Shown here piece after piece: positions 32,827-57,717 of a DNA stretch of 64,000 bases. The stretch spans positions 485 to 64,484 of the forward strand of contig SUUX01000001.1 of NCBI GenBank assembly GCA_015062305.1, in the 5' to 3' direction. Within the stretch, counting starts at the first letter, position 1. Every line of letters starts with the position of its first letter. The position numbers and the translations under genes are program-made. The DNA comes from Alphaproteobacteria bacterium (GTDB lineage: Bacteria > Pseudomonadota > Alphaproteobacteria > RF32 > CAG-239). Below the pieces are notes generated by a model. The model searched no databases, was not told the DNA's origin, and worked only from the letters and a program-made list of their open reading frames with translations.

Positions 32827-32833
32827 GGTGAAT

Positions 32834-40963: not shown

Positions 40964-40969
40964 ATTAGA
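40914..40969 (+). repeat. attL core: 3' part of tRNA-Val plus 6 bp, duplicated at attR
   Basis: A 56 bp stretch (tctcgtttacacc...ccaattaga) recurs exactly at 46826..46881. Confidence 0.8.
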
Positions 40970-41010
40970 GCCTTGAAATTAAAAAAGAATTTCGAGGCTT
41001 TTTTCTTTTT
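40968..41010 (+). terminator. hairpin plus T-run just inside the island after tRNA-Val
   Basis: agccttgaaatt...aatttcgaggct stem followed by tttttcttttt. Confidence 0.45.
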
Positions 41011-41029
41011 AAATTTTATGTAAAATAAA

Positions 41030-41051
41030 ATAGCTAACAAATAGCTAACAG
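41030..41051 (+). repeat. tandem 11-bp repeat ATAGCTAACAA/ATAGCTAACAG (island left end)
   Basis: The same tandem pair recurs at 46670..46691 near the int promoter. Confidence 0.6.
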
Positions 41052-41321
41052 AATTTAGAAAAAAGATAGTGTTTTTTATTCTTTACTTTTTTGTTTTTTA
41101 TTTATAGAGTCGTAATTGGATGGGATGATAACCCGTCTGGGGTGTGGTAACCTCTTACTTGACGTCTATGTGTAAAGACGAAACTTTTGCACGCTTTCTA
41201 GTTAATGAGACTGGAAGGCGGCAAAATACGCTATTTCAGTCAATATGCTGCACTATTCAAGTATAGTTACCAACTTCCAGTCGCCTCTCATCATGGCGGC
41301 TTTTTTTATAAGGAGTTGAGA

Positions 41322-41822
41322 ATGAAAAAAAGTTTGTTAGTGCTATTATGTTGTTTTTTATCATCATGTAGCTTAGAAAGCCGGATTAATTGGGCTAAGT
41401 ACTCTATAAATGTTGAGCGAGATACATTTAAGAAAACATTATTGGTTTGCACGGATGAGTATAAAACAGATGATTATATTAATGGAAGAAGTCCGGCAAC
41501 TTATGCTTTTTGCTATTATGAAGATAAAAACAATAAACATATTTATTCTATTACTGGAAAATATGTTTTACATCAACCTTTACCTATTGAATTTAATGAA
41601 GCTATTGATAAAAATGGCAATCAATTAAAAATAAAATCCACAGATGATAGGCGTTTAGGTGCTACAATAAATAATTTTGCAGTTCAGATTGAAGATAAAT
41701 ATATTGAAAATGTGACTGAAAGTATAGATGTTAGAATTTATGGTAAATACTCTTATACGTTACATATTCCTTATATTGATATTTTGGCATTAAAAGAAAA
41801 AATTAAAGAGGAAAATTTATAA
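41322..41822 (+). CDS. hypothetical lipoprotein (island cargo)
   Basis: AGGAG RBS. Signal peptide with lipobox CFLSSC. No family recognised. Confidence 0.45.
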   Translation: MKKSLLVLLCCFLSSCSLESRINWAKYSINVERDTFKKTLLVCTDEYKTDDYINGRSPATYAFCYYEDKNNKHIYSITGKYVLHQPLPIEFNEAIDKNGNQLKIKSTDDRRLGATINNFAVQIEDKYIENVTESIDVRIYGKYSYTLHIPYIDILALKEKIKEENL

Positions 41823-41963
41823 TAATATAAGGTTGAACAAAATTTATCTTTGAGGGGATATTTTGTTCAACCTTATTATGTTTTTTTGTTAAAATTACAT
41901 GTATTTAATTGAACGTGTTTTTATTGTTTATTTTCAATGTGTTATACTATAAAAATAAAACAT

Positions 41964-42788
41964 TTATCTTGAACACTGTTCTACTATGTTCAAGTATTTT
42001 TTTGAACATTTTGAATAAAAAACTTTAACACGTTGAATTAGATTTTGACTTATAAATAATAAAGTTAAAGCTTCATCTTGATTTTTTGTTATATATTCAA
42101 ACCATCCAGTTGGAGATGAAATGTTTTCAAATTTTATAATATTCTTATTCATTGGATGTTGTTTATGTTTTTTATTAAAAGCAATTTCTTTGAATATTTT
42201 TTTTAATGTTTTTATTTTTTGTGCGTTAAAATTTATAATTCCATGTATATGAAATAAATGTAAGTTATCTTTTATTGTGGTAGTTTTATCAAACTCAATA
42301 ACAAATAACCATTGAGGGTTGCAGTTAAATACATATTTATATTTATTTCTAAAACTCTCGCTAATATAATTGGTTAGTGTTTTAGAGGATTTATAGGCGT
42401 TATAAATATATTTGGTGGAAAATCTTAGTGTAAAGGCAATAAATTCATTAGCAGGAGCAAAACGTAATATGCACATTAGTTTATCAGATTTGTTAAGATT
42501 TCTCCATAATGGTAATTTATTATAATTATATATATTACTAACTGAAGAAGGATTATCAAAAACAACCTTATGAATACAGTTAGTGATTTGATAACTATGA
42601 GTTCTTACATCATTTGTCATTATATGAATTTTTGGTTTTTTTGCGAGTGTTTTACAAAAAAAATTACTTGATGTTTCATTTTCGTTATGTATTATGGTTT
42701 TAGATGATTTATGAAAGTTGTCTATTTCTAAGGCTTGCTGTTGGTGCAAAACAAAGCAAGCCTTTTCTTTTATTGTTCTTTTATACAT
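41964..42788 (-). CDS. putative rolling-circle/HUH-type replication initiator (Rep-like)
   Basis: HUH-like motif LHLFHIHGII and a YxxK-type motif (EYITK) about 40 aa downstream. Positioned after alpA, as in satellite/PICI replication modules. Confidence 0.35.
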   Translation of the reverse strand: MYKRTIKEKACFVLHQQQALEIDNFHKSSKTIIHNENETSSNFFCKTLAKKPKIHIMTNDVRTHSYQITNCIHKVVFDNPSSVSNIYNYNKLPLWRNLNKSDKLMCILRFAPANEFIAFTLRFSTKYIYNAYKSSKTLTNYISESFRNKYKYVFNCNPQWLFVIEFDKTTTIKDNLHLFHIHGIINFNAQKIKTLKKIFKEIAFNKKHKQHPMNKNIIKFENISSPTGWFEYITKNQDEALTLLFISQNLIQRVKVFYSKCSKKYLNIVEQCSR

Positions 42789-43008
42789 ATTTTACAACCT
42801 CGCAACTATTAGAAATGGCTGTTGATATGCGAGAAATTGCCCATTCTTGTAATTCTTTTTCATCATATACAACTGTTTTATATCCAAACTTATGATATTT
42901 AGGACCACCGCCAGTGGTAGCGTACTTACCAAGAGTTTTAGGACTTATTGTTAATCCAAATGTTGTCTTTAAGAAAATACAGGCTTCAGGTCTTGTGTAA
43001 TATTTCAT
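42781..43008 (-). CDS. AlpA-family phage regulatory protein / excisionase-like
   Basis: YTRPEACIFLKTTFGLTISPKTLGKYATTGGGPKYHKFG..VVYDEKELQEW fits the AlpA HTH pattern. Confidence 0.55.
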   Translation of the reverse strand: MKYYTRPEACIFLKTTFGLTISPKTLGKYATTGGGPKYHKFGYKTVVYDEKELQEWAISRISTAISNSCEVVKYV

Positions 43009-43101
43009 AATTTATCCTTTCTTTGTTTTTATAAGTTTTACAAAGTAAGGAATAGTCTATTTTGAAGTAAAGCATAAGTTAGGAAAAAAAATATTTTTTT
43101 C

Positions 43102-43860
43102 TTATTTTTCGTACGCTTTTTCTTTTTTATTATGATAATGTCGATAATCTGCAGATAAATGTCTACATCTATCATTACAGTATTTTTTATTACTTCTATA
43201 TAAGAAAAATTTATTACAACTATGACGTTCACATTGTTTTAAAATATGATTGTTTTCTAAATGTTTAAAAAATGTTTCGATAATGTTTAATAGTAAATGT
43301 TTACTTAAAGTGTCTTTTCTTGATGCCAAAATTTTTTGTATTTTAGGAAACAATGTATTTGCTGTTTTATCTTGGGGTTTAGACGAGTTTAAAATGTCAT
43401 TAAATATTTTTCCTAATTTTCCAATAGATATTGCTAATCCTATTGAGTAACTTCCATCAATAGCTTGATATTTAAGTAAATTATAAATTTGCTTATCAAG
43501 AGTATTAATTATTTCTCCCATTATTTGAATATTTTTAAAATTTGTTAGTAATTGACATATAAAAAAATAGGGAAAAATGTTATTTTCGTTTTGTATTCTA
43601 AATTTTAGATAATAGGAACGTTCTCTTTTAGTGTAGTCATCAGGAAAAAAACTTTTTTCTTCATCTGCATTAAAATTTTTAGATAATGAACATTTTATTG
43701 GATGTTTAACATAAGACATTGTCACAAACTCTAGAGTAACATTATATTTTATATTATTTTCATCTAACATTTCTGCAGATACAATATCCTTAAAAAGATA
43801 TATTCGGTTTGTATCTTGTTTTATAAGGTGGTTTTTTTTGTAAGCAACTATGTCATTCAT
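43102..43860 (-). CDS. hypothetical protein with C-terminal CGNR-type zinc-finger-like motif
   Basis: C-terminus CERHSCNKFFLYRSNKKYCNDRCRHLSADYRH resembles zf-CGNR (C..C..F.D.S.....WCS..CGNR). N-terminal 200 aa unassigned. Confidence 0.35.
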   Translation of the reverse strand: MNDIVAYKKNHLIKQDTNRIYLFKDIVSAEMLDENNIKYNVTLEFVTMSYVKHPIKCSLSKNFNADEEKSFFPDDYTKRERSYYLKFRIQNENNIFPYFFICQLLTNFKNIQIMGEIINTLDKQIYNLLKYQAIDGSYSIGLAISIGKLGKIFNDILNSSKPQDKTANTLFPKIQKILASRKDTLSKHLLLNIIETFFKHLENNHILKQCERHSCNKFFLYRSNKKYCNDRCRHLSADYRHYHNKKEKAYEK

Positions 43861-43862
43861 GA

Positions 43863-45371
43863 TTATCTCTTTGAATGCGTTTTTTTACAGTTTGGGGTAA
43901 ATGATAATTTTGCATATTGATAATTAATGGTGTTGCAAATAACATCTTTAATTCCTGTAGCATATCGTAAATCAGCGCCTTTGATGTCGGCATTGGTTAA
44001 AATTGCATTTGAAAAGTTGCTACATCTAAAATCTGCATTTTGTAAGTTTGCATTGGTAAAATTAGAATTGCTAAAATTAATATTAGAAGCTTGTATTTTT
44101 TTCAAATTACCATTTATAAATCGTTTATTAGTGTATTTACTTATTTGTTCTTTTTCGCAAATTCCACTCCATGTATTAAAAGAAATATTCTCAAGTGTTA
44201 TATTGCTTAGATGATAATTAGAAAAGTATATTGTGATAATAACAATATATATTGGTAAAATGGAATTCATTTTTGTTTTTTGGGGTATAAAGTGATATGA
44301 TAAAACACTTGTCACAACAATAAATAAGCTTAACATCCAAGTGGGTTTGTTAAATGATAAGAGTTTTGTTATGTTTGTACCAATATTGTTTATATCAATA
44401 AAAGTAGCTAAGGCTAATATTAACAATATTGAGGTTATAGGATGTATAGTATTTCCTGAGTGATTTATTTTGAATATAAAGAATACACCTAAAATCATTT
44501 GAAGTTCGTTTTCACTTAAATTTAAAAATGCAATATCAAAAAAGTATATGTGTAATATTCTGCTTAAGAATAGATATAAACAAATAAAGTCTAAGAATCG
44601 AAATAAAGCTATAGTGTGATTAGTTATTTCATTATAATCCAATTTTAAATTTTTATCCATATTTTGACTTTTGATATTACTAATTGGAAGTAATCCTTTA
44701 AAGTCTATTTGAAGTTCAGTTATCCATCTTAATAAAAAATACTTACTTAAAACGGTTGAAATTCTTTCACCATCTGGAAATATTACGGGTAAAGTTCTTA
44801 TCATTGCCATTATTTCGAGAGTTAATGGTATTAAAAATTTATCTAAGGCAAATACTATTATAATTCCAAAACATAAAAATGTTGTATAAGATACCATTCC
44901 TGTTAAATCAAAGAATGGATTTGGAATATTTATTTTTGTTCCTAAGAAAAAATCAGAATATGAGGCACTTAGTGCAAATAATATGTAGTAAATACAAATG
45001 ATACAGTAGAGAAGTGAGATTATTTTGTATTTTGAACTATGGTCGTTAATATATTCTATTTTTTGAGAATAAGAAAAAGGTAGTTTTGTTCCGTATAAAT
45101 TTGAAAAGCCAAAAGCATTAATACTAAGGTATTGAGCATTAATAAAATTACATTTTTGGATAATTGAATTTTCAAATTTTGTATTTGTGAGGTCACAGTT
45201 AGAAAAATCACAATTTTCAAATATACTATTATTTAAGTTCATATTAGATAAACAATCTTTTGTAAAAGAGCAATTTACTAATTTTAATTGTTTTCCAGTA
45301 ATGTTATTTGTAAGCCAATCAGAATGATTCTTATATAACTTTTCAAATTCTTTTTTGTTTATTTTTTTCAT
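43863..45371 (-). CDS. pentapeptide-repeat / polytopic membrane / pentapeptide-repeat protein
   Basis: N-terminal pentapeptide repeats (NCSFTKDCLSNMNLNNSIFENCDFSNCDLTNTKFENS), about 8 TM helices, then C-terminal repeats (ASNINFSNSNFTNANLQNADFRCSNFSNAILTNADIKGADL). Very AT-rich. Confidence 0.55.
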   Translation of the reverse strand: MKKINKKEFEKLYKNHSDWLTNNITGKQLKLVNCSFTKDCLSNMNLNNSIFENCDFSNCDLTNTKFENSIIQKCNFINAQYLSINAFGFSNLYGTKLPFSYSQKIEYINDHSSKYKIISLLYCIICIYYILFALSASYSDFFLGTKINIPNPFFDLTGMVSYTTFLCFGIIIVFALDKFLIPLTLEIMAMIRTLPVIFPDGERISTVLSKYFLLRWITELQIDFKGLLPISNIKSQNMDKNLKLDYNEITNHTIALFRFLDFICLYLFLSRILHIYFFDIAFLNLSENELQMILGVFFIFKINHSGNTIHPITSILLILALATFIDINNIGTNITKLLSFNKPTWMLSLFIVVTSVLSYHFIPQKTKMNSILPIYIVIITIYFSNYHLSNITLENISFNTWSGICEKEQISKYTNKRFINGNLKKIQASNINFSNSNFTNANLQNADFRCSNFSNAILTNADIKGADLRYATGIKDVICNTINYQYAKLSFTPNCKKTHSKR

Positions 45372-45375
45372 TTTA

Positions 45376-46635
45376 TTAAACCTCTAAAGCTTCTGCGATT
45401 TTTTTTGATATGGCATCGGCGGCATAAACTAGGCTTGCATCAACACTGTGACTGTAGCGGTTAGTTACGCCACCAAGTTTATGACCTAATAGTCCGGCAA
45501 TGGTTAATTCATTATAATTCATATCAGCGCCGACGCTTGCAAAACTATGTCTTAATGTGTGAAGGCATATATCTTTACTAATAAAGGGTGTTTTTTCTTG
45601 TTCTGGATGTTCATTTTTATAATCGGTAGGCAAACGATATATTTTATTAAAGATTTTTAATAAGCTAATAAGGTGTCCTGAGCCTCTAGTTGCCGGAAAT
45701 ACCCAATCATAATTATTATTTTGTTCTTTTATTTCTTCTAATAGTTTTTTTGCAGAGTATCCAAAAGGTCTTATTTGCGCTCCTGTTTTGGTGTCAGGAA
45801 AACGAAAACACTGATTTTTAAAGTCTACATAATCCCATTTGAGAGTTAATATCTCATTTTTTCTACAACCTGTTAATATTAAAAGTTTTAAGGCATTTAT
45901 AGCGGTGGTGCTACATAAATGCAATTCTTCAGCCGCTGTCAATGCCTTTCCAAATAATTTAATTTCATCAATAGTTAAAAATTCTTCTCTTTTGTTAGTT
46001 TTAGGCTTTTTTATTCCTAAAGCAGGATTCTCATTAATATAACCTCTTAATTTTGCAAAGGATAAAATACTACTGAGCATTTCAAGCGTACGCTTAGCAA
46101 TAGATTTTCCACCTTTTACATTTATAACACCTCTTTTTTTTGAGCTTTTAGCTATATATGCTGTGTCACCTTTAATAATAGATAATACCATTTTATCTAT
46201 ATGTTCTTTTTGTAGTTCTTTAACCGCCATGTTTCCTATTAATGGCTTAATATGGCGTTCTATTCTGCTTCTATCGTTTATTATAGTTGAATTTTTTTTA
46301 TTGTAAGTTGCTTCATCCATATAAATTTCGCATAGTTCAGTTATAGTAATAGCTTTTTTATTACCTGTTTTTTCTAATGCAGGGTCACCATGATTTAAGG
46401 TTATATCTGCTAATGTTTTTTGAGCTTTTTCTCTTGCCTGTTCAGGAGTTATTTTTCCAACTTTTCCTAATGTAAACATTTTTTGTTTACCAAATTGGTT
46501 TCTATACATAATTACCCAAGATTTACTTTTGGGTTGAATTCGTATACCAAAACCTTTTAAACTATCATCCCAAAATGTCTTTCCTATGTCTTTTTCTGTT
46601 ATTTTATCTATAAAACTTTTGTTTATTTTTACCAT
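45376..46635 (-). CDS. tyrosine-type site-specific integrase (P4-like, N-terminal arm-binding DUF4102-like)
   Basis: N-terminus ...KGFGIRIQPKSKSWVIMYR.. and C-terminal catalytic HTLRHSFAS...LLGHKLGGVTNRYSH (R..H..R..Y). Confidence 0.9.
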   Translation of the reverse strand: MVKINKSFIDKITEKDIGKTFWDDSLKGFGIRIQPKSKSWVIMYRNQFGKQKMFTLGKVGKITPEQAREKAQKTLADITLNHGDPALEKTGNKKAITITELCEIYMDEATYNKKNSTIINDRSRIERHIKPLIGNMAVKELQKEHIDKMVLSIIKGDTAYIAKSSKKRGVINVKGGKSIAKRTLEMLSSILSFAKLRGYINENPALGIKKPKTNKREEFLTIDEIKLFGKALTAAEELHLCSTTAINALKLLILTGCRKNEILTLKWDYVDFKNQCFRFPDTKTGAQIRPFGYSAKKLLEEIKEQNNNYDWVFPATRGSGHLISLLKIFNKIYRLPTDYKNEHPEQEKTPFISKDICLHTLRHSFASVGADMNYNELTIAGLLGHKLGGVTNRYSHSVDASLVYAADAISKKIAEALEV

Positions 46636-46669
46636 AATACTAGTGTTTCCAATGCTTGTAGATTAAAAA

Positions 46670-46691
46670 ATAGCTAACAAATAGCTAACAA
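46670..46691 (+). repeat. tandem 11-bp repeat ATAGCTAACAA x2 (island right end, 35 bp upstream of int start)
   Basis: Matches the tandem pair at 41030..41051. Confidence 0.6.
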
Positions 46692-46825
46692 ACTAGGGTA
46701 ATTTATGGTAAAAGTTATAATTGATTTTATTTTTAAAGTAAAGTATATTATTTTGTAAAAACAAATATATGAGTACAAAATAATCATTTATAAATCACCA
46801 TAAAAATATAGTAAAAAATATGGTT

Positions 46826-46881
46826 TCTCGTTTACACCGAGAGGGTCGGGAGTTCGAACCTCTCAGCGCCCACCAATTAGA
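46826..46881 (+). repeat. attR: 56 bp direct repeat of the tRNA-Val 3' end
   Basis: Exact copy of 40914..40969. Confidence 0.8.
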
Positions 46882-46917: not shown

Positions 46918-47022
46918 ATGATTTTTTTGTTCGAACTCCCGGGAAGGGAGTTTGGGCTGAACTTTTAGGCAGACGGGAGTATGCCGGTGGCAAAGCCAAA
47001 AAGTGAAGCAGGCGAAGCCAGC

Positions 47023-47042
47023 CTCTCAGCGCCCACCAATTA
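47023..47042 (+). repeat. second partial att copy (20 bp of tRNA-Val 3' end)
   Basis: ctctcagcgcccaccaatta. Confidence 0.6.
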
Positions 47043-47082: not shown

Positions 47083-47106
47083 TTGATATGGGACTTGAGT
47101 AGCCTG

Positions 47107-47160
47107 TTCAGCGCTCACCAATTAAATAGAATTTCAGATGATATTCGGAACTCTTTTTTT
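47107..47160 (+). repeat. third, degenerate copy of att 3' end plus terminator
   Basis: ttcagcgctcaccaattaaatagaatttcagatgatattcggaactcttttttt is a diverged duplicate of 46863..46917. Confidence 0.55.
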
Positions 47161-47293
47161 TGCATAATATATACATTTTATCAGATTTTTGAGTTCTTGA
47201 AAAAGATATGAATGTTTATTACTTATTTTTTATATACTTTTGTAACTTGAACTAATCTTTGTACTATGTGTGAAAACAAGGATTGGAGTTGCT

Positions 47294-47725
47294 ATGATGA
47301 AGGTGTATTGTGATTCTAGTTTTGATGATAGGAGAGGCATTGCCGGAATTGGGGTAACAATTGTGGATGGAGAAAAAAGACGAACTTATTCTTCTTGGAT
47401 TAGAGCCAGAAGTAATAATGAGGGAGAATTGTTTGCAATCCACTTGGCAAGTATTTTGAGTGAAGGACGAGGGATTATATATACAGATTCTCAATGCGCA
47501 TTGACTTATATTAGTGGTTTGGTGCAAGACAAGCCCAGAACAAGAGAACAGTATTTGAACCACAAACATTGTGAATATTGGGCGAAGCAAATTAGGCGCA
47601 GAGGTGTGTCGGCAGAAAAAATAAAAGCACATCAAAAAACTTTTCAGGTTCATTCTATAGGGAACAGAATGGCTGATTTGTTGGCAAATGAAGGCAGAGC
47701 AAAGTTTTATGAACGCTTGCATTAA
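47294..47725 (+). CDS. rnhA: ribonuclease HI-type RNase H domain protein
   Basis: D/E/D/H/D motifs in order (VYCDSS, NNEGELFA, IYTDSQ, KAHQ, GNRMADLLA). Confidence 0.65.
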   Translation: MMKVYCDSSFDDRRGIAGIGVTIVDGEKRRTYSSWIRARSNNEGELFAIHLASILSEGRGIIYTDSQCALTYISGLVQDKPRTREQYLNHKHCEYWAKQIRRRGVSAEKIKAHQKTFQVHSIGNRMADLLANEGRAKFYERLH

Positions 47726-47772: not shown

Positions 47773-48249
47773 TTATTCGTAAGAAACGGTGATGGTTTTG
47801 TCTTCATTGATGATGAACTCTTGGCATGTTTTGTAATAAGATGGATTATTTTTTACGAGATGCTTGAATTCATCTATTGAAATAGCTGTCAGAGGCTTGC
47901 CATCTGTAGAAAATTTCTGCCAAAAAGAAGCTTCTTCTTTGTACAGACATAAGACGAAAATCTCTTTATCCATATTAAAGTAGATGTTCTCAATGTGCAA
48001 AGAATACTCCATATCGGGACACTCCAACAAAGGCAATACTTTGTTTATTAGCAAATTGTGCATTGGGTTGAGAGTGTAACATGGAGGCAATGTCATAGAT
48101 TCCAGTTCTACAGGAGGTTTTTGAATTTCTTTTGTAGCGGTTTCGGTGACGGCAGAAGTTTTGTGTTTTTGCTTGTTTCTATTAAATATTCCAAATCCGG
48201 CTAATAGCACCATCATAATGATGCAAATTACAATAATCAAACTTTCCAT
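47773..48249 (-). CDS. hypothetical membrane-anchored protein
   Basis: 158 aa with an N-terminal TM segment. No family recognised. Confidence 0.4.
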   Translation of the reverse strand: MESLIIVICIIMMVLLAGFGIFNRNKQKHKTSAVTETATKEIQKPPVELESMTLPPCYTLNPMHNLLINKVLPLLECPDMEYSLHIENIYFNMDKEIFVLCLYKEEASFWQKFSTDGKPLTAISIDEFKHLVKNNPSYYKTCQEFIINEDKTITVSYE

Positions 48250-48395
48250 AGTAATTGTGTTTTTTTGTTAATAATAAAATTTTGTCACATATTATGTCTA
48301 ATAAAATAAAATGTCAAGATATAAGTCGTTTGTAGTTGATAATGAAAAAAATGTATGTTATCTTGAATTAGATTTGTTTTTTGGGGAGAAAAAAT

Positions 48396-48644
48396 ATGGA
48401 AACTAAAGTTGCTGTCATCGCTATTATCGTAGAAAATAGAGATTCTGCTGAAAGTTTGAATGCAATTTTGAGTGAATATGGTGAATATATCATAGGGCGC
48501 ATGGGGATTCCATATAAGGCTAAAAAAATTAATATTATCAGTGTGGTTGTGGATGCACCGCATGATGTGATTAGTGCTATGGCCGGAAAAATCGGAAATT
48601 TGCAAGATGTTACTGTTAAAACGGCTTATTCCGGTTGCAATTAA
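48396..48644 (+). CDS. TM1266-family small protein (putative [FeFe]-hydrogenase system regulator)
   Basis: VAVIAIIVENRDSAESLNAILSEYGEYIIGRMGIPY...VISAMAGKIGNLQDVTVKT fits the TM1266 pattern. GGGGAG RBS. Confidence 0.6.
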   Translation: METKVAVIAIIVENRDSAESLNAILSEYGEYIIGRMGIPYKAKKINIISVVVDAPHDVISAMAGKIGNLQDVTVKTAYSGCN

Positions 48645-48693
48645 TTAAATATATTTAACTGACGGGAAAGAGTAATCTGACCCAAAAGATGAG

Positions 48694-50121
48694 GTGGAAA
48701 TGGTTTATGATGTTAAATCGGCCAAGGCCGAAGAATTTATTTGTCATGAAGAAATTTTGGACAGTTTGGCTTATGCAGAGGCTAATAAAGGAAATCTGCA
48801 ATTAATTGATGAAATATTAGAAAAAGCAAGGCAGCGCAAAGGATTGTTGCATCGAGAGGCATTGCTTTTGCTTGATTGTGAAGATGAAGAAAGAAATCAG
48901 CAAATTTTTGCTTTGGCAGAACAGATAAAAAAAGATTTTTATGGCAATAGAATTGTGTTGTTTGCACCGTTGTATTTGTCTAATTATTGCGTGAATGGTT
49001 GCGTTTATTGCCCGTATCATGCTAAGAATAAGAGAATCTTTCGAAAAAAAATGACTCAGGGCGAGATTCGACAAGAAGTGATTGCTCTGCAAGATATGGG
49101 TCATAAGAGATTGGCTCTGGAGGCCGGTGAGGATCCGGTTAATAATCCGATAGAGTATATTTTGGAATCTATCAAAACTATTTATTCCATTCAGCACAAA
49201 AATGGTGCAATTAGGCGAGTTAATGTAAATATTGCAGCAACAACAGTTGATAATTATCGCAAATTGAAAGATGCCGGAATTGGAACTTATATTTTGTTTC
49301 AAGAGACATATAATAAAGAATCTTATGAAAAATTGCATCCGACTGGTCCTAAGCATAATTATGCGTGGCATACAGAGGCTATGGATAGGGCTATGGAAGG
49401 TGGAATTGATGATGTGGGCTTGGGTGTGCTTTATGGTTTGGAATCTTATAGATATGAATTTGTGGGACAATTGATGCATGCCGAACATTTGGAAGCTGTG
49501 CATGGGGTGGGGCCACATACAATCAGTGTGCCAAGAATAAAGAGGGCAGATGATATTGATCCGGATAGTTTTGATAATGGAATAGATGATGATACTTTTG
49601 CAAAGATTATTGCTTGCATTAGAATTGCTGTGCCTTATACCGGAATGATTATTTCTACAAGAGAATCTCCAAAAGTTAGAGAAAGAGCCTTGCATTTAGG
49701 AGTGTCGCAAATTAGTGGAGCTTCTAAGACAAGTGTGGGCGGATATGCACATCCGGAATCGGAAGACGAAAATTCGGCCCAGTTTGATGTGAGCGATAAC
49801 AGAACTTTGGATGAAATCATCTATTGGTTGATGAAAATGGGGTATGTACCCAGTTTTTGTACGGCTTGTTATCGAGAGGGGCGTACAGGTGATAGGTTTA
49901 TGGAGCTTTGCAAAGCAAAGCAAATTCAAAACTGTTGTCATCCCAATGCATTGATGACACTGAAGGAATATTTGACAGACTATGCTTCTGAGGCAACCAA
50001 AGAGCTGGGACAGGCATTAATACAGTCAGAATTGGGTAATGTTCCGCAAGAAAAAGTGCGCGAGATTGTACAAAAGCATTTGATAGAAATAGAAAAAGGC
50101 AAAAGGGATTTCTATTTTTAA
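48694..50121 (+). CDS. hydG: [FeFe]-hydrogenase H-cluster radical SAM maturase HydG (tyrosine lyase)
   Basis: Radical SAM CVNGCVYC (CX3CX2C) and ThiH-like core. HydG-specific C-terminal CTACYREGRTGDRFMELCKAKQIQNCC (CX2CX~22C auxiliary cluster motif), which ThiH lacks. Confidence 0.75.
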   Translation: MEMVYDVKSAKAEEFICHEEILDSLAYAEANKGNLQLIDEILEKARQRKGLLHREALLLLDCEDEERNQQIFALAEQIKKDFYGNRIVLFAPLYLSNYCVNGCVYCPYHAKNKRIFRKKMTQGEIRQEVIALQDMGHKRLALEAGEDPVNNPIEYILESIKTIYSIQHKNGAIRRVNVNIAATTVDNYRKLKDAGIGTYILFQETYNKESYEKLHPTGPKHNYAWHTEAMDRAMEGGIDDVGLGVLYGLESYRYEFVGQLMHAEHLEAVHGVGPHTISVPRIKRADDIDPDSFDNGIDDDTFAKIIACIRIAVPYTGMIISTRESPKVRERALHLGVSQISGASKTSVGGYAHPESEDENSAQFDVSDNRTLDEIIYWLMKMGYVPSFCTACYREGRTGDRFMELCKAKQIQNCCHPNALMTLKEYLTDYASEATKELGQALIQSELGNVPQEKVREIVQKHLIEIEKGKRDFYF

Positions 50122-50171: not shown

Positions 50172-53100
50172 GTGGCAAGTTTTGTACAAAAAGGATTTGC
50201 CACTTTGATTATTACAAATTTTAGAGAGTATATTGAGTGTTTGCGCAATTTGTTTGCCGGCGAGCAAGCAGGTGCATTGTCTGATTATGCTCAAGATGTG
50301 GCACAAAGCGGCAGAAAACAAAAAGAAGTTAAAGAAAAACTACAAAAAGAGATTGTGGCTATAACTGCTAAAATCAACTTTTGGCGGCAAAGGATTAAAG
50401 AGGAAGAAGATAAAGTAGCTCTTAGTCAAGAAATAACAAAATTCAAAGAAGTTAAACAAGATTTGTTGCGCAAACTTAAGCAAAAATCTCAGACCAGTCG
50501 TTTTGCAATGCTTTCTGATGAAAGTAAAGCTACTCTTTGTTGTCTAACGGTGTTGCGTAAATATTTGACCAAAGAATTGATGAACAATAAATTTGTCGGA
50601 ATGGCGACAGATGATGATGGCAATTTAATATTTAGCCAAGAAGTATTTGAAAATTCTTTTTTATACAATGATGCCAGACATATTTATGACTATATGTTGG
50701 CTTATATAATTGAACATCCGGAACAGGTATTGAGCGAAACGCATTTTAATAAATTTTTTGACAAAGAAAGCGGTTGGCGAGGAATTGTCCATTTTGCTGA
50801 TAAGTATTTTGAAGAGAAGAATAAACGCAAAAAAAAGAGCAGGGCCGAGATTATTGCAGAAAGTCGAAGCGATTTGGAGCTAATTAAGGAATATCCGCAG
50901 CAAAAAGTGGTGTTGGTAAGGCTGATAACTCCAGAGGCTTTGGATTATGAAGGGGCCGCTGCGCATAATTGTGTGGGAGCCGGAAGTTATGATAAGCTCT
51001 TAAATCAAGTTAATAGTGGTATTTTTTCGTTACGCAGAGAAACCAAAGACGGTGAACTTAAGCCGGTTGCAACCGTAGAATTAAAAAATGGCTTAATTAC
51101 TCAATTTAGGGGAATTTGTAACGGTATTGTGGCTTATGATTATAATTTGGCCGCCAGAGATGTAAGCTTGCGGATGATGAGGGCTGAAAGTATTGCAGAA
51201 TTGGTGAATAATGAAAAATTGAGTGATAGTGTGCTTAATTCTTTGGGAATTTATCGTGACAAAAAGGGCGGATTTTTAGATATTCATAACTTGAGTGGCG
51301 ATGAGGGATTTGTTTTGCCTAAACTGGTTGTTGATGGTGACAGTTTAGGAAAATATGAATTTGAAAAATTGAAAATAGAACAACTACAAATAGAAGGTTT
51401 GCGACCTAAAGATGCTAAGTATTTGAGTAAGTTTAAAAGAGTTAAAAACTTAACAATCAACCAGATAGAAGATGGAGTTGTTTTGGATTTGAGTGGTTTT
51501 GATTATTTGACCGACTTGACTACAGAGTTGAAAAACGGATTGGGCAAGATAGTGAATTTGCCTAAATCTGTAACTCGTATTACTTATAGAGGTAAAAATG
51601 TTTTACATGCATCGGGCGAGGTGGAGCGTATTTATATACAATGTAGCGGTAATAACAAAGTAAGCTTAGAGGATATTCCGTCGGCCAAAGATATTGTTGT
51701 AAATTCAATGGGTAATATAGATTTGTCTGGAGATACAATATATCCACGCTTGGAGAGTTTGTCTTCTGATGGAGATTTGTTGAACGAGGTATGCGCTGAA
51801 AAATTTCCCAATTTGACGATGTTATCGTGTTCAAATATTAAATCTTTGGGGCATATTCCAAGTCTTAAGATGATAGATCTTACAGGAACATCTGATACGT
51901 TGATTGATTTGTCGAATAACCCTCAGTTGTTGGTTGCTAAGATTAAAGGCAAAGGAGTAAAACTTCGTTTGGCAGATTGTTATCCTAATTTAAAAGATTT
52001 CTATACGGAAAATGTTGGTTTGGATTTATTTGATGTGAAAAGTTTTCCGCAATTGGAAAATTTGAAATTGGGTGTTTCTGACAGTTGTATCATACGTTTT
52101 CGTCCTGATAGTAAATTAAAATCGGTTTCGATGGTATCTTCAAATAATAATGCAATATTTACACTCGAAGGACAGACTAATGGAAGAGAAACATTATATA
52201 TAGATAATGTTAATGCTCCGGTGTTTTTGAATGATAATATCGGTTTTGGTAAAGTTGAATTTCGTAATTCTTATTTGAACGATCCGCTTCCGGATTGTTT
52301 TAATGATATGGAAACTTTTTTTGATAACACGCGCTTGAGTGCTGAGCTATGTAGAAGGATTGCCGTGATTAATGTAGATTCCAGAAATAGGGATAATGGT
52401 GCGGCACCGGTGATAGATTTTTCTGATTGCCAGAGTGTTGATTTTTCTTCGTTTGCGGTGTTGCCGGCAGAAAGGTTGATCCTTCCTGAGAGAATGGAAA
52501 AATTGGTTTTGCATGGAACTTTATTTCCGGCAGCAGAAATTGTCGGAGGACGACAAATCAGAAATTTGGATTTAGCTCAAGTTTATAAACATCCTTTTAT
52601 TGATAAGCTGGATTATGGTTATATTGAGGAATTAACATTGCATAATGTAACGCAAAATGATTTTATTGCTAAATGTCCGAATTTGAAAAAATTGAATTGT
52701 ACAATGTTGCCGCTTGAAAGGGTTCCCGAAGGAATTACGGATTTGACATATCATTCGGCTATGGGAATTGCGATGGAAGGGGACGAGCCTCAAAGATTGT
52801 TTGATGAAATAGTGGATTTTTCAAGCTTGGGTAATGTTAAAAAACTTGATTTGCGTATGAATCTTTCTCATTTTAAGTCACTGAAGCTACCTCAAAATAT
52901 AGAAAGTCTTGCTTTTATGAATCAGATGTGTAGTATGCAAGTGTTGGACTTGAGCCCGTATCCTAACTTGAAAAAGATATCTTTGAGAAATTCTTTCAGT
53001 GATAAGTTTGAAAAAGTAATACTTCCGGAATCGGTAGAAGAATTAGACGCCGGAAGAGGAGATATGGATGCAATCGGGTATTGCAAATTTGCGCAGTCTG

Positions 53101-53288
53101 ATGGACCGGAAAAGCCGGCAAAAGTGTTTTTTGAAATTCCACAAACCGCTAAACCGGAAGTCATTGCATATTTGCAAAAAGAATGGGGTAAGGATAATGT
53201 GATAATTGTGCCGCCTAAAAATAAAAAAGAACAAAATTTGCTGTCGGTAGTGATGATGAAACAAAAATTATCTCGAGGAAATAGTTAA
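50172..53288 (+). CDS. large leucine-rich-repeat protein with conserved N-terminal domain of unknown function (effector-like)
   Basis: 1038 aa. C-terminal two-thirds has many L..L.L..N/C-type repeats (NLTINQI, LSGFDYLTDLTTELKN, LKKISLRNSF). The N-terminal region contains a conserved-looking motif EALDYEGAAAHNCVGAGSY...GIFSLR. Confidence 0.55.
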   Translation: MASFVQKGFATLIITNFREYIECLRNLFAGEQAGALSDYAQDVAQSGRKQKEVKEKLQKEIVAITAKINFWRQRIKEEEDKVALSQEITKFKEVKQDLLRKLKQKSQTSRFAMLSDESKATLCCLTVLRKYLTKELMNNKFVGMATDDDGNLIFSQEVFENSFLYNDARHIYDYMLAYIIEHPEQVLSETHFNKFFDKESGWRGIVHFADKYFEEKNKRKKKSRAEIIAESRSDLELIKEYPQQKVVLVRLITPEALDYEGAAAHNCVGAGSYDKLLNQVNSGIFSLRRETKDGELKPVATVELKNGLITQFRGICNGIVAYDYNLAARDVSLRMMRAESIAELVNNEKLSDSVLNSLGIYRDKKGGFLDIHNLSGDEGFVLPKLVVDGDSLGKYEFEKLKIEQLQIEGLRPKDAKYLSKFKRVKNLTINQIEDGVVLDLSGFDYLTDLTTELKNGLGKIVNLPKSVTRITYRGKNVLHASGEVERIYIQCSGNNKVSLEDIPSAKDIVVNSMGNIDLSGDTIYPRLESLSSDGDLLNEVCAEKFPNLTMLSCSNIKSLGHIPSLKMIDLTGTSDTLIDLSNNPQLLVAKIKGKGVKLRLADCYPNLKDFYTENVGLDLFDVKSFPQLENLKLGVSDSCIIRFRPDSKLKSVSMVSSNNNAIFTLEGQTNGRETLYIDNVNAPVFLNDNIGFGKVEFRNSYLNDPLPDCFNDMETFFDNTRLSAELCRRIAVINVDSRNRDNGAAPVIDFSDCQSVDFSSFAVLPAERLILPERMEKLVLHGTLFPAAEIVGGRQIRNLDLAQVYKHPFIDKLDYGYIEELTLHNVTQNDFIAKCPNLKKLNCTMLPLERVPEGITDLTYHSAMGIAMEGDEPQRLFDEIVDFSSLGNVKKLDLRMNLSHFKSLKLPQNIESLAFMNQMCSMQVLDLSPYPNLKKISLRNSFSDKFEKVILPESVEELDAGRGDMDAIGYCKFAQSDGPEKPAKVFFEIPQTAKPEVIAYLQKEWGKDNVIIVPPKNKKEQNLLSVVMMKQKLSRGNS

Positions 53289-53306
53289 GATAGGGGTGGT
53301 GGATAT
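53289..53306 (+). repeat. direct repeat GATAGGGGTGGTGGATAT (left copy)
   Basis: Recurs at 53771..53788 and flanks the DUF559 gene. Confidence 0.6.
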
Positions 53307-53655
53307 GTCTGGAAATGCGGTTAATGGTAGATTTTTAGAAATTTCAAGGAAATTGAGGAAGAATCAGACAGATTGTGAGAACAGGCTTTGGTTGCGAATT
53401 AACCGAAAGCAGCTTGGAGTTAAGTTTAGAAGACAATATGTTGTTGCAAATAGGTATATCGTCGATTTTATTTGCTTAGAAAGCAAATTAATAATAGAGC
53501 TGGATGGTGGGCAACACTGTGATAATAAAGATGATGTAGTGAGAAACAGTTGTTTGCAAAATATGGGATTTGAAGTGTTGAGATTTTGGAATAGTGATGT
53601 TATTGATAATATAGAAGGATGTTTAAAAGTTATATGTAAAAAAATTAAGAAGTAA
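53305..53655 (+). CDS. DUF559 (Vsr-like endonuclease domain) protein
   Basis: E..LW..L.....G.KFRRQY....YIVDFIC...KLIIELDGGQH....DDVVRNSCLQNMGFEVLRFWNSDV matches the DUF559 signature. Confidence 0.65.
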   Translation: MSGNAVNGRFLEISRKLRKNQTDCENRLWLRINRKQLGVKFRRQYVVANRYIVDFICLESKLIIELDGGQHCDNKDDVVRNSCLQNMGFEVLRFWNSDVIDNIEGCLKVICKKIKK

Positions 53656-54486: not shown

Positions 54487-56745
54487 ATGAGAACAGAACT
54501 TTTGGCGCCGGCTGGCGATATTGAAGCAGGATATGCAGCTCTGTATTATGGAGCCGATGCTGTTTATTTGGGGTTGCAACAGTTTTCAGCCAGAGCTACG
54601 GCTACCAATTTTGCAGAAGATGAACTTAATGAATTTGTCGGTTATGCTCATTATTTGGGTCGCAAAGTATATGCCGCGGTTAATACGGTAGTGCAAGAAG
54701 ATGAGTTGCCACAACTCTTGCAAACCTTGGATATTTGTTCTCATTGCAAAATAGATGCGGTGATTATTCAAGATTTGGGAGTTGCTCGAGTAGTGCGAGA
54801 GAGCTATCCGGAGCTTGAAATGCACGCCAGTACACAAATGGCGGTGCATAATAAAGAGGGGGCTTTGGCTCTGCAGAAACTCGGATTTTCGCGTGTGGTG
54901 GTGGCCAGAGAGTTGACTTTGCCGGAGATTAAAGAAATTGCTGATATTCCTAATCTGGAAACCGAAGCTTTTATTCATGGGGCTTTATGCTATTCGTATA
55001 GTGGGCTTTGTTTGTTTTCGTCCTTTGAAAGCGGGCGTAGTGCAAACCGGGGAAAGTGTTTGTATCCTTGCCGTTCGGAATTTTTGGGTGAATTCGGAAA
55101 AACTCACTATTTTTCGATGAAAGATATGGCATTGCAAGAAGATGTGTTAAAAATGCCGGTTACATCTTTGAAAATAGAGGGACGTAAAAAAACAGCTCTT
55201 TATGTGGCGGCAGTCACTGATTATTATCGGCGTTTGCTTGATGGAAAACCGGTTGAAAATAGAGATGAGCATATAAAGCAGATTTTTTCTCGTCCATGGT
55301 GCAAGTTTCATTTTATGGGTAGAGATAAAAATGTAATTGAGCGCAATTTTGTAGGGCATAGAGGGCTTAAAATTGGAAAAATTGAGCGCTTGGGAAAGCA
55401 TAGTATAGTTTTTAAAACGGGTCATGATATTGGTAGATATGATGGCTTGCAGATAGAAATACCAGGTATGGAAAAGCCGTTTGGTTTTTCGATACAACAA
55501 ATGCGAGTAGAAGGCAAAAATGTATTCGTTGCCAAAGCCGGAACAGAAGTGGAAATCGTGGTACCATCGCAAGCTAAAAACTTGTGTAAAGGACAAGAAA
55601 TTTATTTGGCATCGTCAACTGAGGTTAAAGGGGCTTATGATTATGTTAAACCTAGGCCCAATGAATATAGGCAAAAACAACAAATAGACGTGTCAGTGGA
55701 ACTTTTTGAAGATAAGATTGTTGCTAAAGCGGCAGATAAACAGGCCATAATTTGTGGCAAATTTGAAGCAGCTCAACAGCCGGAAAAAGTAATAGAGGCA
55801 ATTAAAAAATCTTTTGGCAAAAGCGGTGAGGCTGATGTTGCACTTGATAAATTGGAAATAAAAAATGATAAAGTTTTGTTTGTACCAGCTTCTGTGCTAA
55901 ATGAATTGCGGCGTGATTTATATAAGCAAATTGAACCAAAGCAAAAATTAGGAATTTTGCCAGAGGTTTCTAAGCATAATTTGACAAAACCACAATGGAT
56001 TTTACGAACTGATAATGTTGGTAATTTGGCTCTGGTCGATTTGAGCGACGTGGCAGAAATAATTGTATTGTTGAATGAAAACTTTAAGGTCTCTGATTTG
56101 AGCAGTATGCCTAAGAACAAGGTTAGATTGGCCTTGCCGGCGGTTTGTCGAAAAGTGTCAGCTTGGAAGCCGATAATTGAAAAAATGTTGACTGCAGGAT
56201 ATCGCAAATGGGAAATTGCCAATTATTGGGGATGTTCGGTGTTGCCGGAAAAAGGTATTGATTTGAGTTTTGATGCGCCGATTTATATGTTTAATTCGCA
56301 AGCAACAGAAATGGCAAAAGAACTGAGAGCAGGGCGTATTACCTTGCCGGCAGAAGATTTGTTGATTAACTTGCAAAAAGTAGCTAAAAACTCAGCTTTG
56401 CCGGTGGTGTGGGAAGTATATGGTGATATGCCGTTATTTACCAGCGCCGCTTGTATCAGAGATAATGATTGTAAAGATTGTAAACGTGGCGAAAAATGGA
56501 TAAAACTTGAAAAAGACGGTCACAAATACGATGTTTGTTCAAAAGATTGTCAGACAATGCTGTTTGATGCAAAACCATATTGTGTGGCAGAAGAGGCCAG
56601 AGATGTGGCTGTTGATTTTTATAGAGTTAGCTTTGTTTATAAGAAATATAAAGTGGAGCAGGTGGTAGATATTTTTGAAAAATTGCAAAAATTTGAAGAT
56701 GTGTCAGTTTATCATAAAGGCAATTTGGTTGGTAAAATTTTGTAA
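54487..56745 (+). CDS. U32 family peptidase (long form with C-terminal extension)
   Basis: U32 N-terminal signature LLAPAGD..GADAVYLG...and E.F.HGALCYSYSGLC..S.....RSANRGKCLYPCR. Confidence 0.8.
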   Translation: MRTELLAPAGDIEAGYAALYYGADAVYLGLQQFSARATATNFAEDELNEFVGYAHYLGRKVYAAVNTVVQEDELPQLLQTLDICSHCKIDAVIIQDLGVARVVRESYPELEMHASTQMAVHNKEGALALQKLGFSRVVVARELTLPEIKEIADIPNLETEAFIHGALCYSYSGLCLFSSFESGRSANRGKCLYPCRSEFLGEFGKTHYFSMKDMALQEDVLKMPVTSLKIEGRKKTALYVAAVTDYYRRLLDGKPVENRDEHIKQIFSRPWCKFHFMGRDKNVIERNFVGHRGLKIGKIERLGKHSIVFKTGHDIGRYDGLQIEIPGMEKPFGFSIQQMRVEGKNVFVAKAGTEVEIVVPSQAKNLCKGQEIYLASSTEVKGAYDYVKPRPNEYRQKQQIDVSVELFEDKIVAKAADKQAIICGKFEAAQQPEKVIEAIKKSFGKSGEADVALDKLEIKNDKVLFVPASVLNELRRDLYKQIEPKQKLGILPEVSKHNLTKPQWILRTDNVGNLALVDLSDVAEIIVLLNENFKVSDLSSMPKNKVRLALPAVCRKVSAWKPIIEKMLTAGYRKWEIANYWGCSVLPEKGIDLSFDAPIYMFNSQATEMAKELRAGRITLPAEDLLINLQKVAKNSALPVVWEVYGDMPLFTSAACIRDNDCKDCKRGEKWIKLEKDGHKYDVCSKDCQTMLFDAKPYCVAEEARDVAVDFYRVSFVYKKYKVEQVVDIFEKLQKFEDVSVYHKGNLVGKIL

Positions 56746-56859
56746 AATTTGGAAAATAATCGTCGTTTGGTTGCAATATGTGGATATAAAACAATTATTT
56801 GTTGAGTGCTGAAGTTATATATGTTTTTCTAATCTTAAATAAAAGATTGGAGATTGGTT

Positions 56860-57702
56860 ATGCATCCTTTGTTGACGAGGTTTTTTAGTTTTTTTATAGC
56901 AAATAAAAATAAAAGACAGCAATATCGGAGAGAACAGGCGCTTAAATATGAGAAACAGAAACTGAAAAAATATCGTTTTGGAGTTTCTTATTCTCTTTTT
57001 GATGGAATAGAATTATTGGAACCATCTATAAAAAGTATCAGATCTGAAGTTGATTATGTGAATGTGGTTTATCAAATGCACTCTTGGTATGGTGAGCCAG
57101 TGGGTGAAGATTTGCCGCATAGTTTGAGTGAACTAAAAAGAAAAGGTTTGATTGATGAGGTGATAGAATATATGCCGGAGATATCAAAACCAGCAGGATT
57201 ACAAGAATTAAATAAACGAAATTTGGGATTGAAGTATGCAAAAAAGGCCAAGGTTGATTATTTTATGACCATGGATGTAGATGAATTTTATTGCGCAAAA
57301 AATGTGGCTGAGGCTAAAAAAGTAATTGTAGAGAAAAATATTACTCGAAGTTTTGTAACACAAGTTCTTTATGGTAGAAAGCCGACAAAGTTAAATTTGA
57401 ATTTTGGAGAGGCTTGTTATGTGCCATTTTTTTGCAAAATTAATATGTTTTCAAAATTAGGGAGAAATTCTAAAGTTCCATGTAGGGTGGATAAGACCAG
57501 AAGATTTGCTTATAGTATGTTTGATAAATGTTTTGTATTAGATGGAGTGGTTATGCACCATTTATCTGAGGTTAGAAAAGATTATGCCAAGAAAAAACGA
57601 AACTCTTCTACTCAGCAGACCAGAAAAAAACGAAGATGTTTTATACTTCATAAAGGAAAAGCGGAGGTTAGAGATGTGTTTGGTGTAATGGAGTATTTAT
57701 AA
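56860..57702 (+). CDS. putative glycosyltransferase (DxD-containing)
   Basis: YFMTMDVDEFY DxD-like motif. GGAG RBS before ATG 56860. Family not confidently assigned. Confidence 0.3.
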   Translation: MHPLLTRFFSFFIANKNKRQQYRREQALKYEKQKLKKYRFGVSYSLFDGIELLEPSIKSIRSEVDYVNVVYQMHSWYGEPVGEDLPHSLSELKRKGLIDEVIEYMPEISKPAGLQELNKRNLGLKYAKKAKVDYFMTMDVDEFYCAKNVAEAKKVIVEKNITRSFVTQVLYGRKPTKLNLNFGEACYVPFFCKINMFSKLGRNSKVPCRVDKTRRFAYSMFDKCFVLDGVVMHHLSEVRKDYAKKKRNSSTQQTRKKRRCFILHKGKAEVRDVFGVMEYL

Positions 57703-57717
57703 AATAATACCGGTTAT

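Follow-up and report, generated by a model that had tools for sequence, protein, structure and literature searches.

Within the 64-kb window (the entire stretch of alphaproteobacterial DNA that was analysed), the segment from 48396 to 50121 runs from the ATG of a small TM1266-family gene through the stop codon of hydG (Table 1). The two genes lie on the same strand, the first ending 55 nt upstream of the second, and all related loci are arranged likewise. The source had been described beforehand as a probably host-associated alphaproteobacterium, and that identification is right.

Table 1 Features at and around the TM1266-hydG locus (coordinates within the window)
Feature	Position	Strand	Remarks
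Integrative element in tRNA-Val	40914-46881	.	5.9 kb, perfect 56-nt direct repeats
Direct repeats of the tRNA-Val element	40914-40969 and 46826-46881		perfect, 56 nt
Integrase of the tRNA-Val element	45376-46635	-	
RNase H gene	47270-47725		
Candidate sigma-70-like promoter	48336-48364	+	TTGATA-17-TATCTT, with TG; consensus match alone; upstream of the TM1266 gene
TM1266-family small protein gene	48396-48644	+	82 aa; TIGR03959 and PF21699 matches
hydG	48700-50121	+	473 aa; TIGR03955
Hairpin and T-run, possible terminator	50172-50213	+	12-pair stem 50172-50203, then TTTGATTATT
Gene for a 1038-aa protein	50172-53288		matches Pfam PcfJ-like family; LRR matches weak, sub-threshold
U32-family gene (Peptidase_U32 + DUF3656)	54487-56745	+	752 aa

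The hydG gene and its product

The mechanical open reading frame for hydG opens at a GTG at 48694 and would encode 475 aa, a version for which an exact look-up returned 0 public contigs. An ATG at 48700 is preceded by GAGG (48691-48694), and the 473-aa protein beginning there has exact copies on 17 public contigs. On these sequence grounds the ATG at 48700 is almost certainly the true start. The identical 473-aa protein is deposited at NCBI (MBE6447725.1), where it is already annotated as HydG.

HydG is a radical-SAM tyrosine lyase and one of the three maturases that assemble the metal centre of [FeFe] hydrogenase. Tyrosine is cleaved at the N-terminal [4Fe-4S]/SAM site, while the C-terminal auxiliary cluster carries a fifth, ‘dangler’ iron, and the dehydroglycine fragment is converted to CO and CN-. 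The resulting Fe(CO)2(CN)(Cys) synthon is processed by HydE and HydF and delivered to the hydrogenase, HydA.

The window protein matches the TIGR03955 equivalog model with 922.8 bits (cut-off 312.15). Its N-terminal radical-SAM motif CX3CX2C reads CVNGCVYC (PF04055, 64 bits) and its C-terminal CX2CX22C motif reads CTACYREGRTGDRFMELCKAKQIQNCC; both motifs are intact. Both are retained in 85 of 85 HydGs compared, every alphaproteobacterial one included. The solved HydG of Thermoanaerobacter italicus (PDB 4WCX) aligns with residues 11-473, up to the very end of the protein, at 56% identity and 564 bits; that of Carboxydothermus hydrogenoformans (4RTB) scores 363 bits, and both matches are full-length. 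The CX3CX2C motif, a BATS domain and the C-terminal CX2CX22C domain are shared with both, lengths are close (473 versus 477-480 aa), and no notable difference is apparent at the sequence level. The His of LMHAEHLE aligns with the His of LYHANHLE at chain position 266 of 4WCX, which may correspond to the dangler-iron ligand numbered His265 in the literature. Two ‘long HydGs’, P0001 (662 aa) and P0002 (589 aa), contain internal duplications; they were ruled out as HydG fusions and are assembly artefacts.

The TM1266-family gene

With 114.8 bits against TIGR03959 (cut-off 60.8) and 112 bits against PF21699 (cut-off 27), the upstream partner belongs to the TM1266 family, as had been proposed. Structure 2NZC, that of TM1266 itself, aligns through its residues 3-80 with residues 1-77 of the partner (E 5.6e-10), and the exact protein is found at NCBI under the name ‘iron-only hydrogenase system regulator’ (MBE6447724.1). 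The 82-aa protein is a single domain whose size leaves none spare for a DNA-binding domain, and comparison with 2NZC revealed no recognisable DNA-binding part in it. A regulatory role is putative, a word that the family name itself uses. The protein may act as a one-domain accessory factor of the kind found alongside hyd maturase genes.

The TM1266-like gene has its own ribosome binding site (GGGGAG, 48383-48388). Because the two genes share a strand, are separated by a 55-nt gap and each have a separate ribosome binding site, they are probably co-transcribed. The region scanned for promoters gave 16 matches of the candidate type versus 11.1 +/- 3.7 in shuffled sequence, which is not above chance. 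The possible terminator sits 50 nt past the hydG stop codon and shares sequence with the start, as called, of the open reading frame that follows; 2 terminator-like sites were found against an expectation of 1.5 +/- 1.2, a weak result that is likewise not above chance.

Neighbouring genes

The RNase H gene and the integrative element named in the preliminary description are both present, but the label ‘LRR effector-like’ is not established for the third neighbour, which matches the PcfJ-like family and whose LRR matches are weak and sub-threshold. Downstream of hydG there is a DUF559 gene in addition to the PcfJ-like gene. The U32-family gene, which is no known hyd component, remains linked to hydG throughout the alphaproteobacterial clade; Firmicutes do not show this linkage. 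In the species of the window itself, inserted genes spanning 4.4 kb have come between hydG and the U32-family gene, so the two do not form an obligate operon.

Conservation of the TM1266-hydG pair

Synteny of the pair extends to more than 10 related alphaproteobacterial genomes, with HydG identities of 79-94%, and the related alphaproteobacterial genomes examined all share the same fixed layout, TM1266 and hydG on their own. The 1,787,813-nt contig VZQY01000132.1 of GCA_018263635.1 is among those with such a pair. The pair is part of the core genome. Compared with its orthologues, hydG has a dN/dS of approximately 0.03-0.05 with dS saturated, and its nonsynonymous rate is 2.4-3.8 times below that of the neighbouring U32-family gene. 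The gene is under long-term purifying selection. In a neighbour-joining tree without support values, the window HydG and 13 of the 14 alphaproteobacteria-labelled HydGs form one clade, in keeping with vertical descent, with the remaining one (L028) placed outside it. In a GTDB scan the protein showed 77-82% identity whether compared with HydGs from Firmicutes, Negativicutes, Gastranaerophilales or other groups.

Searches for hydA, hydE and hydF

Pfam and NCBIfam scans of the real-looking large open reading frames of the window (at least 120 aa) identified 0 hydA, hydE or hydF genes. Profile HMMs for HydE, HydF and HydA were built for this analysis and run against all six reading frames of the 64-kb window from end to end; no HydE, HydF or HydA was found, and the sole HydE match was hydG itself (89 bits). 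The canonical hydE-hydG-hydF operon is accordingly not what lies at this locus, as neither HydE nor HydF gave an HMM match of its own. The three genes are also absent from approximately 8 kb past the right end, where flagellin and ABC transporter genes are located. The contig is 266 kb long and the genome likely 1.6-1.8 Mb in size; over the roughly 72 kb that they covered, these searches agree with the earlier statement that no hydA, hydE or hydF is within view of hydG.

Regular-expression, tblastn and HMM searches of all the alphaproteobacterial hydG loci revealed no hydE, hydF or hydA, and none of the three is found within 10 kb of hydG in more than 15 such loci. The HydF of Gastranaerophilales was used as a protein query for an alphaproteobacterial HydF because the HydG of that group was nearest in the tree; it returned two large clusters, both assigned to Gastranaerophilales by neighbouring genes and cluster names. 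Alphaproteobacterial hydG loci show a strong GC skew. A singleton match to HydF (P0228) comes from a 9-kb contig that is uninformative and does not show this skew. A scan of JGI metagenomes with a HydF alignment gave, among the matches listed, mainly environmental contigs and none resembling the alphaproteobacterial loci. No match named CAG:239 or CAG:260 was obtained in a search with the TM1266 protein. Tetranucleotide composition was tried as a contig classifier and found unusable, being swamped by GC content.

Arrangement of hydG loci across lineages

The layout of hydG was surveyed at 80 species-representative loci, comprising 10 alphaproteobacterial, 6 Phascolarctobacterium-like, 6 Gastranaerophilales-like and 58 other loci, the last mostly from Firmicutes. 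No hydE or hydF is adjacent to hydG at any of the alphaproteobacterial (10/10) or Phascolarctobacterium-like (6/6) loci, nor at five of the six Gastranaerophilales-like ones. Among the 58 others, hydE is located beside hydG in 42 and hydF in 45. A hydA gene within 10 kb of hydG occurs in just 3 of the 80 loci, and is rare at this distance in Firmicutes too. In Gastranaerophilales, hydF is a solitary gene amid ribosomal-protein genes. The hydE-hydG-hydF order is a Firmicutes habit; in gut Alphaproteobacteria, Phascolarctobacterium and Gastranaerophilales the genes are dispersed. Compared with the TM1266-hydE-hydG-hydF operon of Firmicutes, the window locus encodes a HydG that is 77-82% identical and a TM1266 protein that is 49-68% identical, and it lacks hydE and hydF.

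HydE, HydF, HydG and [FeFe] hydrogenases have been reported in gut alphaproteobacterial MAGs (Degli Esposti et al. 2016, Table 1; PMC4967309). In Azospirillum sp. CAG:239 and Acetobacter sp. CAG:977 the hyd accession numbers are non-consecutive and far apart, which indicates that the hyd genes are dispersed. In Azospirillum sp. CAG:260 the HydF and HydG accessions are consecutive with HydE apart (PMC4967309), an arrangement unlike the lone-hydG loci examined here. The organisms are, like the source of the window, uncultured gut Alphaproteobacteria with a HydG; their presumed tie to the window genome is made through the HydG clade and through the names given by NCBI and MGnify (‘Alphaproteobacteria bacterium’, ‘uncultured Azospirillum sp.’). 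The HydG clade of the window includes two loci labelled ‘uncultured Azospirillum sp.’ (L020 and L021), each with a lone TM1266-hydG pair of the same kind.

Interpretation of the locus

The TM1266-hydG pair is very probably a conventional unit of a dispersed [FeFe]-hydrogenase maturation system. By analogy with the gut alphaproteobacterial MAGs for which these genes are reported, we consider it highly probable that hydE, hydF and hydA lie elsewhere in the genome of the window. HydG would then supply its synthon to HydE, HydF and HydA encoded at distant sites. The locus had been presented as an unexpected orphan, a view that is not supported given that related genomes normally have a lone pair and that other lineages are arranged likewise.

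If instead hydE, hydF and hydA had disappeared from the lineage or had never been present in it, then HydG and TM1266 would serve another job, for example the provision of an Fe-CO/CN species, or of p-cresol or dehydroglycine, for a different acceptor. HydG would in that case be a stand-alone source of the Fe-CO/CN unit or of tyrosine-derived fragments for a non-hydrogenase acceptor. The lack of all three genes from about 72 kb here and from up to 10 kb around hydG in more than 15 alphaproteobacterial loci is in keeping with this, as are the reduced genomes of related gut alphaproteobacteria of the order RF32 (approximately 1.6 Mb; PMC8199421), and the strong conservation of hydG means that it is in use for something. 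However, non-adjacency is common in other lineages, being the rule at Phascolarctobacterium-like and Gastranaerophilales-like loci, and hydA is so seldom near hydG that separation is uninformative as to orphan status. TM1266 is itself a marker of the hyd system, and a full hyd set is reported for gut alphaproteobacterial MAGs (PMC4967309). The protein is also not divergent from operon-encoded HydGs, having all motifs and 78-82% identity to HydGs from TM1266-hydE-hydG-hydF operons of Firmicutes, and offers no hint of new chemistry; the earlier suggestion that it might make another organometallic cofactor is not supported. We therefore regard a true orphan as quite unlikely. A version in which the whole clade lacks the three genes and TM1266-HydG has been repurposed, possibly in connection with the U32-family Fe-S protein, can draw on the U32-hydG linkage that is kept in the clade and missing in Firmicutes, but the inserted genes that split the two in the species of the window speak against it, and it is very unlikely.

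A recent arrival of hydG from gut Firmicutes without its partners, as cargo of the adjacent island or of another mobile element, is highly improbable. The integrase island lies close to the TM1266 gene, PcfJ-like and DUF559 genes follow hydG, and the protein is 81-82% identical to HydGs of Lachnospiraceae. Yet the island is bounded by its perfect repeats and stops 1.5 kb short of the TM1266 gene, leaving hydG outside; relatives without it retain RNase H-TM1266-hydG at the same site; and the GC content of TM1266-hydG (36-38%) is that of the host backbone, unlike the 24-30% of the island. The 81-84% identity to the HydGs of Marvinbryantia and Robinsoniella was first read as recent horizontal transfer from Lachnospiraceae, a reading dropped in view of the similar identity to many other groups and the separate clade of the alphaproteobacterial HydGs. 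Identity of about 80% across many phyla reflects extreme conservation of HydG, and with a clade of their own and saturated synonymous divergence any transfer must be ancient. That the gene encodes ThiH or another tyrosine or tryptophan lyase (NosL, CofH) is virtually out of the question. The families are homologous and the ThiH, NosL-type and CofH models do match secondarily, but the next-best model, ThiH, reaches only 280.8 bits, under its cut-off of 380. ThiH (2-iminoacetate synthase, TIGR02351) shares the radical-SAM tyrosine lyase core and aligns, as PDB 7PD1, with residues 49-386 alone (185 bits); it lacks the C-terminal auxiliary-cluster domain, whereas the window protein has one of approximately 90 residues that aligns end to end with 4WCX. 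Model scores, both Cys motifs and the structure alignments thus uphold the original call of HydG and refute the other identities.

For the dispersed maturation system that we favour, little at the locus is new: the gene is already named HydG by NCBI, and gut Alphaproteobacteria with [FeFe]-hydrogenase machinery are already published. Alphaproteobacterial [FeFe] hydrogenase is of relevance to the debate on the origin of eukaryotic H2 metabolism (PMC4967309, PMC7449678), to which the window locus adds nothing new. Because gene order differs by lineage, partners missing within 15 kb should not be equated with an orphan in scans of this type. The retention of hydG under very strong purifying selection, in genomes that are probably small and reduced, suggests that H2 metabolism is important to these uncultured gut and rumen bacteria.

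Identity of the two genes

On the HydG equivalog model TIGR03955 the 473-aa product of hydG reaches 922.8 bits (cut-off 312), and on the ThiH model 280.8 bits, under the cut-off of 380. The T. italicus HydG structure 4WCX matches it from residue 11 to the C-terminus (564 bits, 56% identity), while the match to the ThiH structure 7PD1 is limited to residues 49-386. The protein has both the radical-SAM CX3CX2C and the HydG-specific CX2CX22C motifs. The preliminary description had named it HydG and not ThiH, which these matches uphold. A TM1266-type partner had also been proposed upstream and is confirmed by 114.8 bits on NCBIfam TIGR03959 (cut-off 60.8), 112 bits on Pfam PF21699 and alignment of residues 1-77 to the TM1266 structure 2NZC. 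This protein consists of one small domain and lacks a DNA-binding part, so 'regulator' is a label only.

The mechanical ORF start of hydG is GTG 48694 (475-aa product), but 17 public contigs carry the form beginning at the ATG and none the 475-aa form; a GAGG box lies 5 nt 5' of this ATG. From their 55-nt spacing we infer that the two genes are co-transcribed; promoter and terminator matches around them were not above chance. Exact copies of HydG (MBE6447725.1), the TM1266 protein (MBE6447724.1) and RecA (MBE6447686.1) are in NCBI, as are the Lon, PGI and U32 proteins of the window, all from a 266,076-nt contig of one MAG labelled 'Alphaproteobacteria bacterium'. hydG is thus an ordinary, already annotated gene with its usual small partner.

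Features around the TM1266-hydG pair (window positions)
Feature	Position	Strand	Details
IbrA/IbrB-like pair	31516-33349		PAPS-reductase + DUF3440 (436 aa) overlapping ParB_N-like gene (181 aa)
Integrative element in tRNA-Val	40914-46881		24-30% GC; perfect 56-nt direct repeat at 40914-40969 and 46826-46881
Membrane protein (element cargo)	43863-45371	-	502 aa; pentapeptide repeats at both ends
Tyrosine integrase (element)	45376-46635	-	
Partial tRNA-Val 3'-end copies	47022-47042, 47104-47124		
158-aa ORF between RNase H and TM1266 genes	47773-48249	-	N-terminal hydrophobic stretch
TM1266-family gene	48396-48644	+	82 aa
hydG	48700-50121	+	473 aa from ATG 48700
PcfJ-like gene, then DUF559 gene	50172-53655		1038-aa PcfJ-like protein; PF14284, 41 bits
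U32 (with DUF3656) and MATE genes	54487-59101		U32 752 aa

Gene arrangement in the window and in other lineages

Profile HMMs for HydE, HydF and HydA were built from 37, 41 and 3 sequences of related loci. Run on all six reading frames of the full 64 kb, they gave no hydE, hydF or hydA, the one hit being a weak, expected HydE cross-match on HydG. By Pfam/NCBIfam, the gene-like large ORFs (at least 120 aa) are housekeeping genes (RecA, GatA/B, RecJ, MgtE, M16 peptidases, PGI, MutL, ZIP, LpxK, KdtA, Lon, U32, MATE, GalE and Sir2), and the roughly 8 kb that follow the right end contain flagellin and ABC transporter genes. The earlier claim that no hydA, hydE or hydF is in view of hydG therefore holds for all 64 kb. 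Indirect protein and metagenome searches recovered no alphaproteobacterial HydF among the matches listed.

A lone hydG had been called unexpected, which did not survive a GTDB scan of 80 species-representative hydG loci (up to 10 kb of flank on each side, scored with the HMMs), since the alphaproteobacterial (10/10) and Phascolarctobacterium-like (6/6) loci are likewise without hydE, hydF or hydA nearby. Only 3 of the 80 loci have hydA at a distance of 10 kb or less from hydG.

Neighbours of hydG by group of loci
Group	n	hydE adjacent	hydF adjacent	hydA within 10 kb	None
Alphaproteobacteria-labelled	10	0	0	0	10
Phascolarctobacterium-like	6	0	0	0	6
Gastranaerophilales/cyanobacteria-like	6	0	1	0	5
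Other (mostly Firmicutes)	58	42	45	3	4

The usual order in Firmicutes is TM1266-hydE-hydG-hydF, whereas the window has TM1266-hydG without hydE or hydF. In gut Gastranaerophilales (L094-L099) hydF is itself solitary amid housekeeping genes, either flanked by rpsO and an LPS heptosyltransferase gene (rpsO-hydF-heptosyltransferase-dapF-rpsF-ssb-rpsR) or beside folE2 (LPG synthase-hydF-folE2). Such lone hydG and hydF layouts make scattered hyd genes the norm outside Firmicutes, and the lone TM1266-hydG pair is the typical arrangement of this lineage. The same lone pair, with Lon-HU upstream, is present in a near-complete single-contig genome (GCA_018263635.1, VZQY01000132.1; 1,787,813 nt, ~1.79 Mb) from a related gut alphaproteobacterium that is very common (679 blocks of the contig collection are indexed for its TM1266 protein). 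Related genomes were also recovered from roe-deer caecum (RGIG3920), the human gut (HGM16795, MGYG-HGUT-03859) and further gut or rumen assemblies.

Two 'long HydG' database entries, P0001 and P0002 (662 and 589 aa), contain exact internal duplications of ~190 or ~115 residues; they were rejected as fusion proteins, the duplications being assembly artefacts.

Neighbourhood of the pair

An integrative island near hydG had been noted previously, and a 5.9-kb tRNA-Val element does end 1.5 kb upstream of the TM1266 gene. Its cargo also includes four ORFans, and the two additional tRNA 3'-end fragments suggest repeated integrations. The TM1266-hydG pair is native, not mobile; RNase H-TM1266-hydG is found at the same place in relatives lacking the element, with the same U32, MATE, GalE, Sir2 and QueH genes downstream as in the window.

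Of the 'LRR effector-like' neighbour of the preliminary description, the large protein is present, but its LRR/FNIP matches are sub-threshold only, and it has a PcfJ-like domain. It is fast-evolving (38-64% identity where HydG has 92-94%), and its gene and the DUF559 gene are insertions between hydG and U32 restricted to the window's sub-clade. The 158-aa ORF has no family match; it is an annotated gene in public contigs of the species and is missing from the closest relatives (L001, L002, L011). A 413-aa ORF without family matches precedes the IbrA/IbrB-like pair, and in the relative L008 the same trio stands immediately 5' of TM1266-hydG.

Conservation and probable partners

HydG uses a 5'-deoxyadenosyl radical to split tyrosine, and at its C-terminal auxiliary cluster the dehydroglycine fragment is turned into CO and CN-; the product is an Fe(CO)2(CN)(cysteine) unit that HydE and HydF convert to the 2Fe subcluster of HydA. 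Judged by its sequence, the window's HydG appears to have all features required for this tyrosine to CO/CN- chemistry. It is 77-82% identical to HydGs within canonical operons, and nothing in the sequence suggests a changed function. In a neighbour-joining tree (85 sequences, no support values) 13 of 14 alphaproteobacteria-labelled HydGs form one clade with the window's own. Against orthologues dN is 0.05-0.10, dS saturated (>1.5) and dN/dS 0.03-0.05, the nonsynonymous rate being 2.4-3.8 times below that of the adjacent U32 gene. The low dN/dS and the conserved place and clade indicate that hydG has long been kept in working order.

[FeFe] hydrogenase is missing from most Alphaproteobacteria (Stairs et al. 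2020, PMC7449678). Degli Esposti et al. (2016, PMC4967309, Table 1) listed HydE, HydF and HydG, alongside a 'type A' hydrogenase and an M3 hydrogenase that has NuoE/F-like partners, in two human-gut alphaproteobacterial MAGs, Azospirillum sp. CAG:239 and Acetobacter sp. CAG:977, where the accession numbers of these proteins are far apart; in Azospirillum sp. CAG:260 those of HydF and HydG follow each other directly and that of HydE stands apart. The enzyme is patchy in the class and, for gut lineages, already known. Two 'uncultured Azospirillum sp.' loci (L020, L021) have the same lone pair and a HydG of the same clade as the window's.

Taken with the strong purifying selection, the hyd-specific TM1266 partner and the layout in other lineages, these published MAGs make it very likely that hydA, hydE and hydF would be encoded elsewhere in the genome, with TM1266-hydG part of a dispersed system. 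That HydG is a true orphan serving a different acceptor, which might be the conserved neighbour U32, we consider highly improbable. The U32 and MATE genes are hydG-linked in most alphaproteobacterial relatives whose flanks are long enough (L008-L013, L028, L053, L089), U32 following hydG in the same orientation or preceding it divergently, and in none of the Firmicutes loci. ProPhylo (PMC3226654, Table 3) ranks U32 and MATE 9th and 10th among the phylogenetic-profile partners of HydF and treats them as background. The linkage probably reflects ancestral synteny of genes typical of anaerobes.

LpxK, KdtA and OmpA-family genes in the window are consistent with a Gram-negative cell. GC skew is strongly positive throughout positions 1-64000 (mean ~+0.26, maximum +0.38, sign never changing), and the + strand carries most of the genes. 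Low-GC relatives have likewise strong skew (0.15-0.22 absolute); in Gastranaerophilales loci of similar GC it is mostly weaker, up to ~0.13 absolute.
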